NCBI GenBank assembly: GCA_965228485.1
Contig: OZ245819.1
Span: 780,001-812,000 of the forward strand
DNA length: 32,000 nucleotides
Direction of reading: 5' to 3'
Source of the DNA: Candidatus Saccharimonadota bacterium
GTDB lineage: Bacteria > Patescibacteriota > Gracilibacteria > UBA4473
The translations under genes were made by a program, and so were the position numbers. The notes under the pieces were generated by a model, which saw only the letters and a list, made by a program, of their open reading frames with translations, was not told the DNA's origin and did not search any database. This document shows, piece by piece, positions 1-8,605 of the stretch. Within the stretch, counting starts at the first letter, position 1; each line of letters opens with the position of its first letter.

Positions 1-1
1 G

Positions 2-2068
2 AGAAGAATCCCGGAGGTTCTTGATTGTTGGTTTGAGAGCGGAAGTATGCCCTATGCCAGCAGACATTTTCCATTTGAAAAAGAACATGATCAGTCTGCA
101 CAAGACTTCCGAAGTGCCAACTTTATTTCCGAAGGGATGGACCAAACTCGAGGGTGGTTTTACACTCTTCACGTTCTAGGAACGGCTTTGTTTGGTAAAA
201 ACATCTTCGATAATGTCATCTGTAGTGGAATAGTTTTGGCAGAAGACGGAGAAAAAATGTCAAAATCCAAAAAAAACTATCCTGACCCAGGACTAATCTT
301 TGAAAAATATGGAGCGGATGCCATGCGTTTTTACCTTCTACAATCTCCTGTGGCAACAAAAGGAGAAAATCTAAAATTTTCAGAAAGGGAAGTTGAGGAA
401 GTTCTAAAAAATATCATTCTTCCATTAAAAAATGCATACCAGTTTTTATCAATGTATGCCAATATCGATGGTTGGGCACCAACGAAGTTTACACTTATCC
501 GACACGGAGAGGCTGAGCACAATGTAGCCCGCATCTATTCTGGGAAAGCCTCAAACCCACACCATTTAACCAAAGATGGGAAAGTTCAAGCTGAAAAATT
601 AGCCCAGAACATTACCCCAGTAGACGTCCTTGTGGCTTCTCCACTAGTACGGACACAAGAGACCGCTAAAGTAATTGCCGAAGTACAAGGTTTTAACGAA
701 AAAATTATAACCGACGAACGATTTAAAGAAGTAGACTTTGGTGAACTTGAAGGGAGGACCTACATTGGACCAGAGCAAAGATTAAAAGAACCTTCTACCG
801 AGCCATTAGAATCAATTCAAAAACGTTCTCTGGCTGGACTCAAAGAATTAAAAGAAACTCATCAAGGTTCACACATCGGAATTGTAAGTCATGGAGGGAC
901 AATACGTAGCCTCCAAACAGCTTTACACGGAATCACGAAACAAGAAAAACACTTGGAGTTTCCAGCGATTGGAACTGGACAATCTCAGATTGCATTCTGC
1001 CCACCTGAAAGTGAAAATGAACTGGATCAATGGATTATGTCTGAATTACAGACACTAATTGAAAACTACAAAACAGACTTCGATCAATATGATACCGAAG
1101 GCGCGTGTAGGGCAATCTTGCCATTTATTGATAAACTAAATAATTGGTACTTGCGACGAAGCCGAAAGCGATTCTGGGCTGAAGGCTTGGATGCCGATAA
1201 GCAAAATGCCTACGAAACTCTACACTATACACTCTTTACGGTGAGTAAAATTCTAGCACCAATTATGCCATTTTTTGCTGATTGGCTTTACCAGAAAACT
1301 TCTGGTGAACAAAGTCGATCTGTTCATGTAGATTTTGTCCCATTTTCTATAACATCATATAAAAATGAAGCATTAGAAACAAAAGTGGGACTTGCTCGAG
1401 ACATTGTTCGGCTTGCCGCTTCTATTCGATCTCGTCAAAAAATAAAATTAAGACAACCACTACAAAAACTGCAGTTTGCTCTTACTCAAGAGGCGGATCT
1501 AGATCTTGAAACTATTGCCAATGAAGCCAATGTAAAAAAAGTTGAAATCCTCCAATCAGTTGATGGTATTGCTCAACAAATTATTAAAGTTGATGCCCGG
1601 AAAGTAGGACGAAAATTTGGAAAGAAAGTCCAAACATTAATCCAAGCAGGAAAGTCTGGTGATTTCAGTATCCTGCCAGACGGAAAAGTCGAAATCATGG
1701 ACGAAGTACTCGAAGCTGATGAATACGAGTTAGCTTTTATTACCGAAGAAGGAGTAGAGGCCGACGCCACCCCAGATGTAGTTGTGATTCTCAATACTGA
1801 AATAACAGAAGACTTAGCCCAAGAAGGACTTAGTCGAGAAGTTATCAGAAGTATTCAAGACTTAAGAAAACAAACCGGATTTGAAATTAGTGATCGCATT
1901 GAAATTATATTTGAAACTAATGATGAAATGCTCAAAACGATGTTTGTAAGTTTTGGGGATAACATTGCTCAAGAAGTTCTTGCTACAAATATTACAGAAG
2001 GATCGGGAGAACATCTCGTTGAAATTGAAGGAAGAAGCTTGAAGCTATCACTTAATAAACACTCATGA
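2..2068 (+). CDS. ileS: Isoleucyl-tRNA synthetase, 3' portion; the 5' end lies outside the window. Carries an internal inserted domain.
   Basis: The reading frame is open from nt 2 (RRIPEVLDCWFESGSMPYA...), so the ATG at 47 is internal. Has the class I KMSKS motif (GEKMSKSKKNYPDP), FISEGMDQTRGWFYTL, and an anticodon-binding region (LNNWYLRRSRKRFW), typical of type-2 IleRS. Confidence 0.93.
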   Translation, partial: RRIPEVLDCWFESGSMPYASRHFPFEKEHDQSAQDFRSANFISEGMDQTRGWFYTLHVLGTALFGKNIFDNVICSGIVLAEDGEKMSKSKKNYPDPGLIFEKYGADAMRFYLLQSPVATKGENLKFSEREVEEVLKNIILPLKNAYQFLSMYANIDGWAPTKFTLIRHGEAEHNVARIYSGKASNPHHLTKDGKVQAEKLAQNITPVDVLVASPLVRTQETAKVIAEVQGFNEKIITDERFKEVDFGELEGRTYIGPEQRLKEPSTEPLESIQKRSLAGLKELKETHQGSHIGIVSHGGTIRSLQTALHGITKQEKHLEFPAIGTGQSQIAFCPPESENELDQWIMSELQTLIENYKTDFDQYDTEGACRAILPFIDKLNNWYLRRSRKRFWAEGLDADKQNAYETLHYTLFTVSKILAPIMPFFADWLYQKTSGEQSRSVHVDFVPFSITSYKNEALETKVGLARDIVRLAASIRSRQKIKLRQPLQKLQFALTQEADLDLETIANEANVKKVEILQSVDGIAQQIIKVDARKVGRKFGKKVQTLIQAGKSGDFSILPDGKVEIMDEVLEADEYELAFITEEGVEADATPDVVVILNTEITEDLAQEGLSREVIRSIQDLRKQTGFEISDRIEIIFETNDEMLKTMFVSFGDNIAQEVLATNITEGSGEHLVEIEGRSLKLSLNKHS
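482..1006 (+). other. Histidine phosphatase (phosphoglycerate-mutase-like) domain inserted in-frame within IleRS
   Basis: FTLIRHGEAEHN (RHG at nt 500-508), ASPLVRTQETA, and IVSHGGTIRS (SHGG at nt 887-898). It lies between the IleRS segments ...SMYANIDGW and ...ELDQWIMSELQ. Confidence 0.8.
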
Positions 2069-2472
2069 AACCAAAAGTCTCTCTCATCAGTCTCGGGGTT
2101 AATGATTTAAAAATTGCTCGAAAATTTTATGAAGCCCTAGGTTTTGAAACTTTAACAGAAGAAAATACTGATAGTATTGTTTTTTTCAAACTGGCTAATG
2201 AAAATATGTTACTCGGACTTTATCCAAAAGATAAACTCGCTGAGGATGCTACTATTCCCAATGACGGCACCGGATTTTCTGGCTTTACCCTAGCACACAA
2301 TGTTGCTAATCCAGATCGTGTTGATCAGACTCTCCAAGAAGCCGTAAATGCCGGTGCAAAATTGGTAAAACCAGGGCAAAACGTCTTTTGGGGAGGATAT
2401 TCAGGATACTTTTCAGATCCAGATGGATTTTTATGGGAAGTAGCCCATAACCCTTTTATGGACCTCACATGA
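2065..2472 (+). CDS. VOC / glyoxalase-bleomycin-resistance family protein
   Basis: 135 aa. The N-terminal LISLGVNDLKIARKFYEALGFE and C-terminal GYFSDPDGFLWEVAHNP are typical of VOC beta-alpha-beta-beta-beta modules. ATGA overlap with ileS. Confidence 0.75.
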   Translation: MKPKVSLISLGVNDLKIARKFYEALGFETLTEENTDSIVFFKLANENMLLGLYPKDKLAEDATIPNDGTGFSGFTLAHNVANPDRVDQTLQEAVNAGAKLVKPGQNVFWGGYSGYFSDPDGFLWEVAHNPFMDLT

Positions 2473-2957
2473 AAACTGCAGAACTGATTTCTAGGTGGCT
2501 AGAGAATGAAAAAATTCCTTATGAAGTATTTCAACATCGAGCTTTCCACCGAGTAGAAGATACTATTGGAGAATATGAAAAGATGGGATTTTCTGATAAT
2601 AAGAGTCTGTTTTTAAGAGATGAAAAAAAACGGAAGTTTTTTCTTGTAGTTATGAAAGGAGAAACTCGAGCGGATCTAAAAAAAATTGCCGAAATTTTCG
2701 ATGAAAAACGGCTCAGCTTCGCCAATGACCAATTCTTAAATGACTATTTAAAAACAACACCAGGATCTGTATCACCATTAGGGCTAATTTTCGACATTAA
2801 TACCAGTATCCAGGTTTTATTTGATCAAGACTTATTAGATTCAGAATTTGTTGGGTTTCATCCCAATGACAACCAACAAACTTGGAAATTTTTGACGACT
2901 GATTTTGAAAAGTTTCTAGATTCTTTGCCTCACAATATAACTACCACTAGCCTATGA
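2469..2957 (+). CDS. YbaK/ProX-type aminoacyl-tRNA trans-editing deacylase domain protein
   Basis: 162 aa. KSLFLRDEKK...FLVV, a GSVSPLGL motif and the overall size match the YbaK/prolyl-tRNA synthetase-associated domain. ATGA overlaps on both sides. Confidence 0.72.
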   Translation: MKTAELISRWLENEKIPYEVFQHRAFHRVEDTIGEYEKMGFSDNKSLFLRDEKKRKFFLVVMKGETRADLKKIAEIFDEKRLSFANDQFLNDYLKTTPGSVSPLGLIFDINTSIQVLFDQDLLDSEFVGFHPNDNQQTWKFLTTDFEKFLDSLPHNITTTSL

Positions 2958-3529
2958 TACAATTGCAAAACCAAATCTATGTAATGCGCCACGGGCAGTC
3001 AGAAAATAATGTCCTAGGAATCGAATCCTGCCATATTGAAACTCAACAAAAATTTGGACTTACCGCTACTGGACAAGCCCAAGCACACCAAAGCGCCCAA
3101 CAGTTTTCTGAATTTGACATTATTTATAGCTCTCCTTTTCGAAGGGCCCAAGAAACTGCGGCCATCGTCCAAGAATATGCTCAGTGTGAAATTATAACCG
3201 AACACGGATTTCGTGAATATAATATGTGCTATTTTGATCAACGCCCGTATCACGAAGCCGATCAATATATTCATGATCCTGCTAATAATATTTTTAATAC
3301 CCCGGTTGGCAAAGGAGATAGCTTCTTGACTATGTACGATCGCATGAAAAATGCCTTACTAGAAGTTGATGATACTCACGAAAATCGATCTATTCTTGTT
3401 GTAAGCCACGGTTCTCCAATTGAAGCCTTACTGCAATTGATGAAAAACGAATGCAACGGCTTTGGACCTTTTGAAAATATCCCAAAAAACGCTGAAATAA
3501 TTCATCTCAATAACCTCCTATTTAAATGA
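2954..3529 (+). CDS. Histidine phosphatase family protein (PGAM-like), free-standing
   Basis: IYVMRHGQSENN (RHG), SSPFRRAQETA and LVVSHGSPIEAL (second catalytic His). 191 aa. Confidence 0.85.
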   Translation: MIQLQNQIYVMRHGQSENNVLGIESCHIETQQKFGLTATGQAQAHQSAQQFSEFDIIYSSPFRRAQETAAIVQEYAQCEIITEHGFREYNMCYFDQRPYHEADQYIHDPANNIFNTPVGKGDSFLTMYDRMKNALLEVDDTHENRSILVVSHGSPIEALLQLMKNECNGFGPFENIPKNAEIIHLNNLLFK

Positions 3530-4779
3530 TGTTTAACCAAAAAGTTGAAACCGTAAAAGAAAGCTTGAGAAGCCTCTTTCCTGCTACTCCACTACAGTAT
3601 AATCATTTTCTATCTAAAAAATATGAGGCTGATATTTACATAAAAAGAGAAGACCTTACTCCTGTACGAAGCTATAAAATTCGTGGAGCTTTTAACCTTA
3701 TTTCATCAATTTTAGAAGCCGATAAATCTGCCAATGAAGCTCAATTTGTTTGTGCTAGTGCGGGAAATCATGCTCAAGGATTCGCCTATGCCTGTAAATT
3801 TTTTAAAGTAAAAGGCACGGTTTTCATGCCCGTTACGACCCCCCAACAGAAAATTAATAAAACTCGAGTCTTTGGTGGAAAATATGTAGAGATAAAACTA
3901 ATAGGAGATATCTTCGACCAGGCATATATTGCCGCTCAAGAATTTTGCAAAGAAGTAAATGGAACTCTTGTTCCCCCTTTTGATCATCCTAAAATTATAG
4001 AGGGGCAGGCCACAGTGGCGGCAGAAATACTCAATCAAATAAAAGATCCTATCGATTATCTTGTTATGCCCGTTGGAGGTGGCGGATTATCAGCTGGAGC
4101 TTCTGAATTTTTTCGAGCAGCCTCTCCGCAAACCAAACTCATTTGCTGTGAACCAGCAGGAGCCCCAAGTCTAGCTAAAAATCTTACAGAAAAAAAACAT
4201 TTTTCTTTAGATTCTATAGATACTTTTGTTGATGGAGCCTCCGTCGCACTTATTGGAGAACACAATTACGAAATCCTCAGTAAAAATATTAAGGAGCCCG
4301 TAAAACTAGTGCCAGAAAATCGCCTTTGCTCAACTCTTTTAGAATTCTTAAATCATGAAGGAATCGTTCTTGAGCCAGCAGGAGCTCTTTCCATCGATGT
4401 ACTCAAAAATTTTGACCCAGCAGAACTCAAAAACAAAACTATTGTTTGTATTGCCTCCGGGGGAAACTTTGATTTTGAAAGACTCCCAGAAGTAAAAGAA
4501 CGATCTATGAAATATGAAGGATTAAAAAAATACTTCATACTCAGACTACCTCAACGTCCAGGAGCCTTGAGAGAGTTCTTGAATTTATTGGGGCCAAATG
4601 ATGATATTTCACGGTTTGAATACCTAAAAAAATCTTCTAAAAACTTTGGATCCATCTTGCTTGGGATAGAGACATCGAATAGAGACAATTTTGAGACCTT
4701 ACGTGAAACAATGGAGCAGCATGGATTCCGCATGAAAGACGTAACTCATGATGAGATTTTAGCAGACTTTATTATCTAA
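3526..4779 (+). CDS. ilvA: Threonine ammonia-lyase (threonine dehydratase), short form with one C-terminal regulatory domain
   Basis: PLP-dependent fold: IYIKREDLTPVRSYKIRGAFN, SAGNHAQG, and a GGGGL glycine loop. The C-terminal ~90 aa are ACT-like. At 417 aa it resembles the Bacillus-type IlvA. Confidence 0.9.
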   Translation: MMFNQKVETVKESLRSLFPATPLQYNHFLSKKYEADIYIKREDLTPVRSYKIRGAFNLISSILEADKSANEAQFVCASAGNHAQGFAYACKFFKVKGTVFMPVTTPQQKINKTRVFGGKYVEIKLIGDIFDQAYIAAQEFCKEVNGTLVPPFDHPKIIEGQATVAAEILNQIKDPIDYLVMPVGGGGLSAGASEFFRAASPQTKLICCEPAGAPSLAKNLTEKKHFSLDSIDTFVDGASVALIGEHNYEILSKNIKEPVKLVPENRLCSTLLEFLNHEGIVLEPAGALSIDVLKNFDPAELKNKTIVCIASGGNFDFERLPEVKERSMKYEGLKKYFILRLPQRPGALREFLNLLGPNDDISRFEYLKKSSKNFGSILLGIETSNRDNFETLRETMEQHGFRMKDVTHDEILADFII

Positions 4780-4844: not shown

Positions 4845-4873
4845 TTGACATATTCCGAGCGATTTTCTAAATT
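4845..4873 (+). promoter_or_regulatory. Sigma70-like promoter, TTGACA-17 nt-TAAATT
   Basis: TTGACA at 4845-4850, 17-nt spacer, TAAATT at 4868-4873, about 35 nt upstream of the ATG at 4908. Confidence 0.45.
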
Positions 4874-5345: not shown

Positions 5346-5383
5346 TAAAAAAGAACGACTCAGCTGAGTCGTTCTTTTTTTGT
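5346..5383. terminator. Bidirectional intrinsic terminator
   Basis: Perfect 13-bp palindrome AAGAACGACTCAG/CTGAGTCGTTCTT (5351-5376), flanked by an A-run and a T-run, between convergent genes. Confidence 0.75.
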
Positions 5384-7303: not shown

Positions 7304-8605
7304 ATGGCTCCTTCTCAAACGGCTTTCGATAATTTTTTGAAGAATCTATACGAAGCGGCACAAATACTCTCTCTAGAAGATAAAATTGTTCAAAAAATAC
7401 AAACCCCCGAAAATATTTTTGAAAAAGAAATTAGCTTCAAACGAGACGATGGAACCATAGAGACTGTCAATGGTTATCGAGTACAACACAACTCTTCTCG
7501 AGGACCTTACAAAGGTGGTATACGATTTCACCCAGAAGCAGATCTAGAGGAGGTAAAAACTCTCGCTTCATTGATGAGCCTCAAATGTGCTGTTGTAAAT
7601 ATTCCCCTTGGAGGCGGAAAAGGAGGAGTCCAAGTAAATCCTAAGGGACTTTCTAAAAAAGAGCTTGAACAGCTTTCCCGAGCCTATTTTAAGGCCGGAA
7701 CTGAAGCCAAAATTTTTGGAGAACAAAAAGATATCCCCGCTCCTGATGTCTACACCAATCCTCAAGTGATGGCCTGGATGATGGATGAATATGAAACTAT
7801 CGTTGGCTACAAAGCCCCTGGAGTTATAACTGGGAAGCCAGTAGAAATCGGTGGAAGCCTTGGAAGAAACTACGCTACGGCTCAAGGGGGATTTTTTGTT
7901 CTTCAAGATTATCTTAAAAAAACAGGGAAAAAACCTGAAGAAACAACTATTGCTATCCAAGGATTTGGTAATGCTGGAGCTTATTTTGCAGAAATTGCTG
8001 ATCGAGCAGGATTTAGAGTTGTCGCTGCTAGTGACTCTAGTGGAGCTATTTTTTGTGCAGGAGATCAATGTGAAATTCCAAAACTTAAAGAGTATAAAAC
8101 AACCTTTGGATCCTTAAGGGGAAACTTTTGCGAGGGAGATCTTTGCGATATCGAAAAAATGTCTGCCGAGAAGGTAAAAATACTCACTAACGAAGAACTT
8201 TTGCATCTTGATGTAGACGTTTTAGTGCTTGCTGCACTCGATGGAGTGATTAACAAAGAAAATGCTGAGACGATAAAAGCTCCTATTATTCTAGAGCTAG
8301 CCAACGGACCAGTAACAAACGAAGCTGATCAAATTCTCTTTAAAAACGACATTACCGTTATTCCTGATATTTTGGCTAATGCTGGAGGAGTAACCGTTTC
8401 TTATTTTGAATGGGTTCAAAACAGGTCCGGTGATGTCTGGGAAGAAAATTATGTGAATGAAAAATTACACAAGGTTATGAGTAATGCCTTCACAGATTTA
8501 CTAAAAACCCAATCTAGTTACGAATCTATATCACTGCGTCAGGCCGCTTTTGTGTTATCACTCGAAAGAATTATAAACGCTATGCAACTAAGAGGTCAGC
8601 TCTAA
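7304..8605 (+). CDS. gdhA: Glutamate dehydrogenase (Glu/Leu/Phe/Val dehydrogenase family)
   Basis: GYRVQHNSSRGPYKGGIRFHP, NIPLGGGKGG (catalytic Lys region) and GFGNAG (Rossmann fold). The ORF opens at 7208, but family N-termini align with the Met at 7304 (MAPSQTAFDNF...). Confidence 0.9.
   Translation: MAPSQTAFDNFLKNLYEAAQILSLEDKIVQKIQTPENIFEKEISFKRDDGTIETVNGYRVQHNSSRGPYKGGIRFHPEADLEEVKTLASLMSLKCAVVNIPLGGGKGGVQVNPKGLSKKELEQLSRAYFKAGTEAKIFGEQKDIPAPDVYTNPQVMAWMMDEYETIVGYKAPGVITGKPVEIGGSLGRNYATAQGGFFVLQDYLKKTGKKPEETTIAIQGFGNAGAYFAEIADRAGFRVVAASDSSGAIFCAGDQCEIPKLKEYKTTFGSLRGNFCEGDLCDIEKMSAEKVKILTNEELLHLDVDVLVLAALDGVINKENAETIKAPIILELANGPVTNEADQILFKNDITVIPDILANAGGVTVSYFEWVQNRSGDVWEENYVNEKLHKVMSNAFTDLLKTQSSYESISLRQAAFVLSLERIINAMQLRGQL

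Follow-up and report, generated by a model that had tools for sequence, protein, structure and literature searches.

Why is an aminoacyl-tRNA deacylase of the ProXp-ala family attached to ileS, the gene of isoleucyl-tRNA synthetase (IleRS), rather than to proS, and why do a histidine phosphatase and ilvA accompany it? This puzzling arrangement was observed in a stretch of 32,000 nucleotides from Candidatus Saccharimonadota bacterium (GTDB lineage Bacteria; Patescibacteriota; Gracilibacteria; UBA4473), hereafter the window, which corresponds to positions 780001-812000 of a single-contig genome (G000) of 1,295,315 bp with 38.5% G+C and a coding density of 91%. Five co-directional genes are found here on the + strand, namely the 3' part of ileS, a VOC gene, the gene of a tRNA_edit protein, a free-standing histidine phosphatase gene and ilvA (Table 1). 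We consider, with a probability of roughly 0.55, that they constitute a single ileS operon, in which ileS and the ProXp-ala-family deacylase gene form the core, ilvA is co-regulated with them, and the phosphatase is a partner of IleRS.

The five open reading frames (ORFs) and the four ATGA start/stop overlaps that join them (read by inspection of the sequence at 2065, 2469, 2954 and 3526) lie exactly where the initial annotation of this DNA had placed them, and the Pfam and NCBIfam matches agree with its gene labels. The complete ileS begins at genome position 778406, 1594 nt ahead of the window, encodes 1220 aa and ends with the TGA inside an ATGA. Its fragment in the window displays the tRNA-synt_1, His_Phos_1 (fragment residues 164-315), Anticodon_1 and DUF5915 domains, the phosphatase domain being placed between KMSKS and the anticodon-binding domain. 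Across the whole genome, 4-nt overlaps were recorded in 31 of the 688 co-directional neighbour pairs (crude gene calls), a rate at which ~688 x 0.045^4, or roughly 0.003, runs of four junctions would be expected. The five-gene block is the longest ATGA-overlap run of the genome, the next longest having three genes, and it exceeds chance.

Many "Candidatus Gracilibacteria" read TGA as glycine, and we therefore tested the genetic code. This alternative code was rejected, because release factor 2 was found in the genome (448 bits), a tRNA with the anticodon UCA was not found anywhere in it, and the orthologues of IleRS, VOC and the deacylase in relatives stop at the same residues, using TAA or TAG. 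TGA is a true stop and the standard code is used in the genome; TGA stops are rare, being noticed in 75 of the 1076 crude gene calls, and in 33 of these 75 the TGA belongs to an ATGA shared with a downstream ORF. Shine-Dalgarno sites are scarce in the genome (only ~5% of the genes genome-wide have such a motif upstream), and their absence from the four junctions is therefore unremarkable; it is compatible with termination-reinitiation. Since such sites are almost lacking, the ATGA overlaps would couple downstream translation, the translation of each downstream gene following the termination of the preceding one.

Table 1. Features of the ileS block (window coordinates) and of synthetase ORFs with in-frame inserts in related genomes (locus coordinates)
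Feature	Location	Strand	Evidence or size
ileS, 3' two-thirds, type-2 IleRS	1..2068 (ORF part 2..2068)	+	TIGR00392, 303.8 bits on fragment
In-frame histidine-phosphatase domain of IleRS, 'site A' type	476..1015	+	PF00300, 107.6 bits
VOC/glyoxalase-fold protein, 135 aa	2065..2472	+	PF00903, 50.3 bits
ProXp-ala-family aminoacyl-tRNA deacylase, 162 aa	2469..2957	+	PF04073, 81.3 bits
Free-standing histidine phosphatase, 'free type', 191 aa	2954..3529	+	PF00300, 115.2 bits
ilvA, biosynthetic threonine ammonia-lyase, 417 aa, stop TAA	3526..4779	+	NF006390, 580.6 bits
Promoter-like site of next gene (139-aa secreted protein)	4845..4873	+	TTGACA-17-TAAATT, 10/12 matches
First strong intrinsic terminator downstream, bidirectional	5347..5380	both	15-bp stem, T runs on both strands
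Multi-phosphatase IleRS, G024	L034 4561-8853		1430 aa
Multi-phosphatase IleRS, G014	L036 3676-8385		1569 aa
Multi-phosphatase IleRS	L070 3381-7538		1385 aa
GNAT-bearing IleRS, G010	L076 69-5201		1711 aa
GNAT-bearing IleRS, G055	L077 2101-7464		1788 aa
GNAT-bearing IleRS, G004	L038 3257-7453		1398 aa
ValRS with in-frame His_Phos_1, G002	L073 2154-5483
ValRS with in-frame His_Phos_1, G023	L074 2327-5419
ValRS with in-frame His_Phos_1, G016	L075 1947-5267

The 162-aa deacylase had been labelled YbaK-like, and this label gave way to a placement in the ProXp-ala family, to which the protein belongs by sequence, fold and key residues. A phmmer search of the PDB returned only ProXp-ala-type matches (5VXB/1VJF at 3e-18, 1VKI and the human 8HUZ), and neither YbaK nor ProXp-x (2CX5) matched at E<=1. 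The AlphaFold model (pLDDT 93.8) was most similar in Foldseek to 1VJF (TM 0.91), 1VKI (TM 0.89, rmsd 1.7) and 8HUZ (TM 0.81-0.87), with ProXp-x (2CX5, 2Z0K) and YbaK (1DBU) at TM 0.74-0.76; 2CX5 ranked 16th, with TM 0.74 and 19% identity. An identity as YbaK was rejected at 31.9 bits against the TIGR00011 cut-off of 153.25, and an identity as the Abu (2-aminobutyrate)-specific ProXp-x was rejected likewise, on the failed match to 2CX5 and a TM of 0.74 vs 0.89-0.91 for ProXp-ala. Thus, the deacylase shares the superfamily and the catalytic lysine with ProXp-x, an Abu-tRNA deacylase, and with YbaK, a Cys-tRNAPro deacylase, but differs from both by the lack of a match at E<=1, the TM of 0.74 and an rmsd of 3.4. 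In the databases, homologues from outside the lineage are annotated as Ala-tRNA(Pro) deacylase or as prolyl-tRNA synthetase associated domain protein.

With the ProXp-ala enzymes of C. crescentus (5VXB/1VJF) and Agrobacterium (Atu3699, 1VKI), the deacylase has in common the single-domain fold of the INS superfamily, Lys45, the GXXXP loop and the gatekeeper His. Among 16 sequences of the family and 54 wider homologues, no variation was observed at K45, the G99..P103 loop or H131. The Caulobacter enzyme binds A76 and C1:G72 of tRNAPro through K45, K50 and R80 (PMC10164551), and Arg is found here at both of the latter positions, R81 aligning with R80 and R50 with K50; in more distant ileS-linked deacylases the R80-equivalent position is K, S or N. 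The tRNAPro(UGG) of the genome has C1:G72 and A73, and its tRNA-Ile has G1:C72 and A73. Unlike the Caulobacter protein, which has Gly at pocket position 32 (a pocket residue according to bioRxiv 10.1101/2020.09.11.293571), the deacylase has Thr there (T32), and its activity is a predicted one. It would hydrolyse small mis-attached residues of the Ala or Ser type from tRNA, with tRNAPro as the default candidate, so that Ala/Ser-tRNAPro is the most likely substrate as judged from homology. The family into which it falls has an established substrate, Ala-tRNAPro, and a placement of this kind had been named in the initial annotation as one that would speak against its hypothesis.

To assess how far the arrangement is conserved, we searched by tblastn for the five proteins in neighbourhoods taken from genomes labelled "Candidatus Gracilibacteria" and from metagenome contigs (G numbers denote genomes and L numbers loci or contigs); a related-locus search with a narrow alignment returned 4 loci. 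The order that had been taken for one tightly coupled operon recurs identically in two genomes of the same genus (G002, G003), and variants of it are dispersed more widely. G001 has the block without VOC, G015 has a 175-aa ORF in place of the phosphatase with the rest of the block present, and G004 has ileS-VOC-147-aa ORF-deacylase-ilvA, the free phosphatase being absent. Shorter versions are ileS-deacylase-ilvA-second deacylase in G024, ileS-deacylase-gap-ilvA in G048 and ileS-VOC-deacylase-ilvA on metagenome contig L057, and contig L070 harbors a block variant with two extra small ORFs. In G020, a free GNAT gene lies between ileS and the deacylase gene.

The 3' end of ileS was then scanned in 43 genomes of the family, 27 of which were informative. 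The deacylase gene was detected on the same strand and <=1.5 kb downstream of ileS in 14 of the 27, and also in G011, on a short contig; the ileS-linked deacylases span 9 genera. In 13 family genomes no deacylase was found behind ileS. Of the family deacylases whose context was examined, all those outside the clade of an unlinked paralogue stand behind ileS, with the sole exception of G013, where the gene follows a free phosphatase gene instead. Outside the family, neither of the two ProXp-ala-like genes examined adjoins ileS, and the Firmicutes-type homologues likewise do not. VOC, the free phosphatase, GNAT or MBL genes and ilvA vary among the operons of the relatives, and the stable core of the operon is ileS together with the ProXp-ala-family deacylase gene. 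We found no description of an ileS-ProXp-ala operon in the literature.

The initial annotation had also pointed to a second copy of the phosphatase family that is inserted in IleRS, and this copy proved to be a genuine partner in the sense that its clade includes IleRS inserts. The genome holds exactly two His_Phos_1 members, both of them in the ileS operon. A tree of 20 phosphatase copies separated two types with 89/82 support: the 'site A' type, which is embedded in every IleRS examined, and the 'free' clade, which comprises the free genes of G000-G003 and G013 together with the IleRS inserts at site B of G024 and site B2 of G014. The RHG motif and the second catalytic His (SHG/THG) are kept in all 20 copies compared. 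Only 18 close homologues of the free phosphatase were found, and the contexts looked at were ileS operons. Because the same type occurs as an in-frame IleRS insert in other genomes, a link of the Rosetta-stone kind, the free phosphatase can be tied to IleRS, and its role as an IleRS-linked partner is suggested by this relationship.

Such insertions are not limited to a single gene. Family-wide, most of the His_Phos_1 matches fall inside ORFs of 1000-1800 aa, and single IleRS ORFs with two or three in-frame phosphatase domains at two insertion sites were observed in G024, G014 and L070. Other IleRS ORFs harbor GNAT domains (Table 1), one each in G004 and G055, the latter also having a MuF_C-like stretch, and two in G010 together with an IS200-like Y1 transposase domain. 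ValRS was found with an in-frame His_Phos_1 domain in three relatives, and no such domain was found in the ValRS of G000. In the candidate phyla radiation (CPR), IleRS interrupted by phosphoglycerate-mutase-family domains has been described in passing (Kantor et al. 2013, PMC3812714); our locus is similar in having a histidine-phosphatase domain of this family embedded in IleRS, but differs in that a second phosphatase type is present in the operon as a gene of its own. No role for a synthetase-embedded phosphatase was found in the literature.

As for the enzymatic identity of the free phosphatase, its best solved relatives are iPSP1 (4IJ5), PhoE (1H2E) and CobC (6NRU/6E4B), with E values of 1.8e-10 to 1e-6. 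It shares the RHG and second-His catalytic motifs with these branch-1 phosphatases, but scores far below every NCBIfam equivalog cut-off. The named enzymes CobC, PspA, GpmB and SixA were therefore rejected, the best being ribazole_cobC with 77 bits vs 162.9 and the others below cut-off. A function as glycolytic dPGM or as phosphoserine phosphatase is also unlikely, since iPGM and a SerB-like HAD phosphatase, the latter near a SerC-like gene, are encoded elsewhere in the genome and those housekeeping roles are thus probably filled. The genes of the SerB-like HAD phosphatase and the SerC-like aminotransferase lie <3 kb apart at genome positions 825182-828164, ~13 kb past the end of the window; both are below equivalog cut-offs, and they may form a serine-pathway cluster.

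The last gene of the block, ilvA, is a threonine dehydratase as initially annotated, exceeding the cut-offs of both NCBIfam equivalogs (NF006390, 580.6 bits against 421; TIGR02079, 570.6 bits against 440.55) and displaying PALP with one C-terminal Thr_dehydrat_C regulatory domain (THD1 type). It was correctly stated that the window contains no other ilv genes, and we observed that the remainder of the isoleucine pathway is present and scattered in the genome, with ilvC at ~418 kb, ilvD at 536 kb, a class IV aminotransferase at 673 kb and the large subunit of acetohydroxyacid synthase at 1219 kb. Because these ilvBCDE-type genes exist elsewhere, IlvA is considered biosynthetic and feeds a complete isoleucine pathway. 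With the full pathway present, shared regulation by tRNA-Ile charging is sufficient to explain the position of ilvA in the ileS operon. The arrangement would amount to a co-regulation of supply and demand, with the other pathway genes encoded elsewhere; ilvA would have been recruited in some genera, so that one signal induces both IleRS and the step committed to isoleucine.

It had been proposed instead that the production of 2-oxobutanoate by IlvA is coupled to translational quality control, the deacylase clearing 2-aminobutyryl-tRNA (or a similar product) that arises as IlvA increases the level of 2-oxobutanoate. The genes of the two enzymes do share an operon in genus g1, G015, G024, G048 and three metagenome contigs; mischarging of Abu has been reported for ProRS, ValRS, LeuRS and IleRS (PMC11295145), and human ProXp-ala deacylates Abu-tRNAPro, 20-fold slower than Ala-tRNAPro (bioRxiv 10.1101/2020.09.11.293571). 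However, the two genes occur independently, since four genomes with the deacylase behind ileS are without IlvA (G011, G014, G020, G023) and two with IlvA are without a ProXp-ala-type deacylase (G010, G016). IlvA is present in 15 of the 43 family genomes; its gene is linked to ileS in genus g1, G015, G024 and G048, but unlinked in six genomes (G042, G010, G013, G016, G043, G041). On the IlvA tree, at least two changes of linkage state are required, and ancestral linkage and repeated recruitment are indistinguishable. Because of these independent phyletic patterns and the placement of the deacylase in the ProXp-ala family, outside the Abu-specific ProXp-x family, the coupling is not supported, and we regard it as highly improbable.

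The regulation on which the co-regulation of ilvA with ileS would depend is suggested by the leader of ileS. In this leader of 262 nt, AGGTTGGCACCGTCC is succeeded by a hairpin (tacgaaat...atttcgta) and by T7, which immediately adjoins the ATG, and the T-box-like element AGGTTGGCACCG precedes this hairpin and T7. We checked 11 ileS leaders and noticed the core TGG[TC]ACC, mostly in the form TGG[TC]ACCGT, in 8 of them; a hairpin and a T run often follow it. Firmicutes and Actinobacteria have ileS and ilv operons under T-box control, whose leaders combine a T-box sequence with a terminator and sense the charging of the cognate tRNA. The present locus resembles these operons in placing a synthetase gene and an amino-acid biosynthesis gene under a leader that is putatively responsive to tRNA charging, and differs from them in that ileS and ilvA share the operon with editing, phosphatase and VOC genes, and in that the leader is not matched by the Rfam T-box model. 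Transcription would start at the T-box-like leader with its terminator, and the whole block would then be responsive to uncharged tRNA-Ile.

No convincing promoter or terminator was found inside the five-gene block. The promoter-like site of the next gene likely marks the 3' limit of the block; no terminator-like site was found between 4779 and 4845, and the first strong intrinsic terminator lies further downstream (Table 1). From these signals, the block is probably one ileS operon with a single transcript under T-box control, and IlvA probably shares the T-box-like leader of ileS. Upstream of the leader, the sole Rfam match was a sub-threshold one to RefA9, an Enterococcus sRNA (41.8 bits vs a gathering score of 49; L056 267-333, genome 776766-776832); it lies between two upstream genes and resembles a terminator hairpin.

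Several observations weigh against the reading given at the outset. With regard to regulation, the Rfam T-box model RF00230 found no match at E<=1 in the ileS leader and the upstream 2.5 kb, and linkage of ilvA to ileS was noticed in only ~4 of the 9 genera that have ilvA. With regard to conservation, the two genes upstream of ileS are syntenic across genera (the downstream yidC-rnpA is conserved within the genus only), and inherited synteny accounts for part of what is shared among the relatives. With regard to the deacylase, ProXp-ala normally accompanies a ProRS lacking the INS editing domain, according to a passage of PMC3973320, and the ProRS of this genome (569 aa, ~245.9-247.6 kb) has an INS-like domain (tRNA_edit, 60.5 bits), with Gln at the gatekeeper-His and Ser at the loop-Pro position by an hhalign alignment of low reliability (probability 85%). 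The genome also encodes another ProXp-ala-like protein, an unlinked paralogue of 163 aa (genome 321945-322436; L001 1384-1875); its gene overlaps the end of the gene of a 422-aa secreted/membrane protein, it has Lys at the R80 (G72-reading) position, and it belongs to a well-supported clade of its own. Because of this INS-like ProRS and this second paralogue, a plain Ala-tRNAPro role looks redundant, and it leaves the fixed position behind ileS unexplained. Two further features set our deacylase apart from the characterized ProXp-ala enzymes, namely the presence of an INS-bearing ProRS and a second paralogue in the same genome, and the fixed location of its gene directly behind ileS, probably under the isoleucine T-box-like leader.

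In a different explanation, the operon is an accessory module centred on IleRS, the deacylase being re-targeted to tRNA-Ile or to a product of IleRS, with the phosphatase, VOC, GNAT and MBL proteins as helpers. The helper set would proofread, repair or detoxify after failed charging of tRNA-Ile, acting for instance on tRNA-Ile that has been mischarged, a damaged tRNA end or an inhibitor of IleRS, and the T-box would switch the set on. It would account for a deacylase that stands behind ileS, and not proS, in 9 genera and that occurs here beside a ProRS with its own INS-like domain, and for the way in which phosphatase and GNAT alternate between free genes of the slot and in-frame inserts of IleRS, the slot also holding an MBL/Apyc1-like gene in L071. 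The ileS-linked deacylases form two clades on the free tree, but their forced monophyly was not rejected (p-AU 0.158), and they are separate from the clade of the unlinked paralogue. However, the deacylase retains R81 and R50, by which C1:G72 of tRNAPro is read (PMC10164551), whereas tRNA-Ile has G1:C72, and its pocket residues T32 and H131 are small and resemble those of ProXp-ala. The CP1 editing motifs of the full IleRS, WTTTPWT and GTGIVHFAPSFGAED, are intact, and therefore the deacylase is no obvious substitute for a lost cis-editing activity. The phosphatase and VOC are without a known substrate, and no member of the set matches PADLOC. We regard the module as possible, though on the unlikely side; its full form, a lineage-specific IleRS helper set (deacylase, free or embedded phosphatase, and VOC, GNAT or MBL proteins) that is switched on by uncharged tRNA-Ile and contains a deacylase re-targeted from tRNAPro, appears unlikely.

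The variable part of the slot raises another explanation, namely that unrelated small genes gathered in a permissive place behind a strongly expressed essential gene and were compacted there, and that their adjacency reflects common descent only. VOC is the clearest case, as it has >7994 homologues with 60-65% identity in Proteobacteria and Cyanobacteria, and is absent from the operon in G001, G024 and G014; it matches no NCBIfam equivalog, the large family to which it belongs has no named function, and its neighbourhoods in other phyla are uninformative. It is probably a horizontally acquired, variable passenger or accessory. The highly variable content of the slot (VOC, histidine phosphatase, GNAT, MBL and small ORFs), the 13 family genomes without a deacylase behind ileS, the synteny of the upstream flanking genes across genera and the IS200-like and MuF_C inserts, which even the IleRS of relatives bear, would all fit such an origin. 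Nevertheless, outside the clade of the unlinked ProXb paralogue the examined deacylases stand behind ileS in 9 genera with one exception only, the free-type phosphatase alternates between an adjoining gene and an in-frame IleRS insert, and the catalytic residues are kept in all the copies of both the deacylase and the phosphatase. Mere inherited adjacency is therefore judged a doubtful account of the block as a whole, and we retain the single ileS operon with its core of synthetase and deacylase genes as the preferred reading.

Some further observations concern the slot of the relatives. On metagenome contig L071, the MBL/Apyc1-like gene (7767-8483) lies between VOC and the deacylase gene; the MBL-fold protein matches the Anti-Pycsar Apyc1 Pfam family, and a reversed His_Phos_1 gene follows ilvA there. 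A known anti-phage system was rejected, since PADLOC gave 0 matches when VOC, the deacylase, the phosphatase and five proteins from the slots of relatives were compared with its models. On L072, a long-read contig of low coverage, the PALP and regulatory domains of ilvA stand in separate ORFs, on the opposite strand to the free phosphatase gene and beside a resolvase gene, which is probably a sequencing error or a rearranged locus.

In summary, the idea of a quality control linked to 2-oxobutanoate and Abu is removed, and the presence of ilvA is most simply explained by shared regulation. ProXp-ala trans-editing factors are understood as partners of ProRS, and a copy behind ileS across nine genera is unexpected. 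The locus is therefore a compact place to ask what the synthetase-embedded phosphatases of the CPR do, and to ask whether a ProXp-ala enzyme can act on behalf of a class I synthetase. If the lineage-specific helper set were true, it would represent an undescribed trans-acting layer of proofreading, tRNA-end repair or inhibitor detoxification on a class I synthetase.

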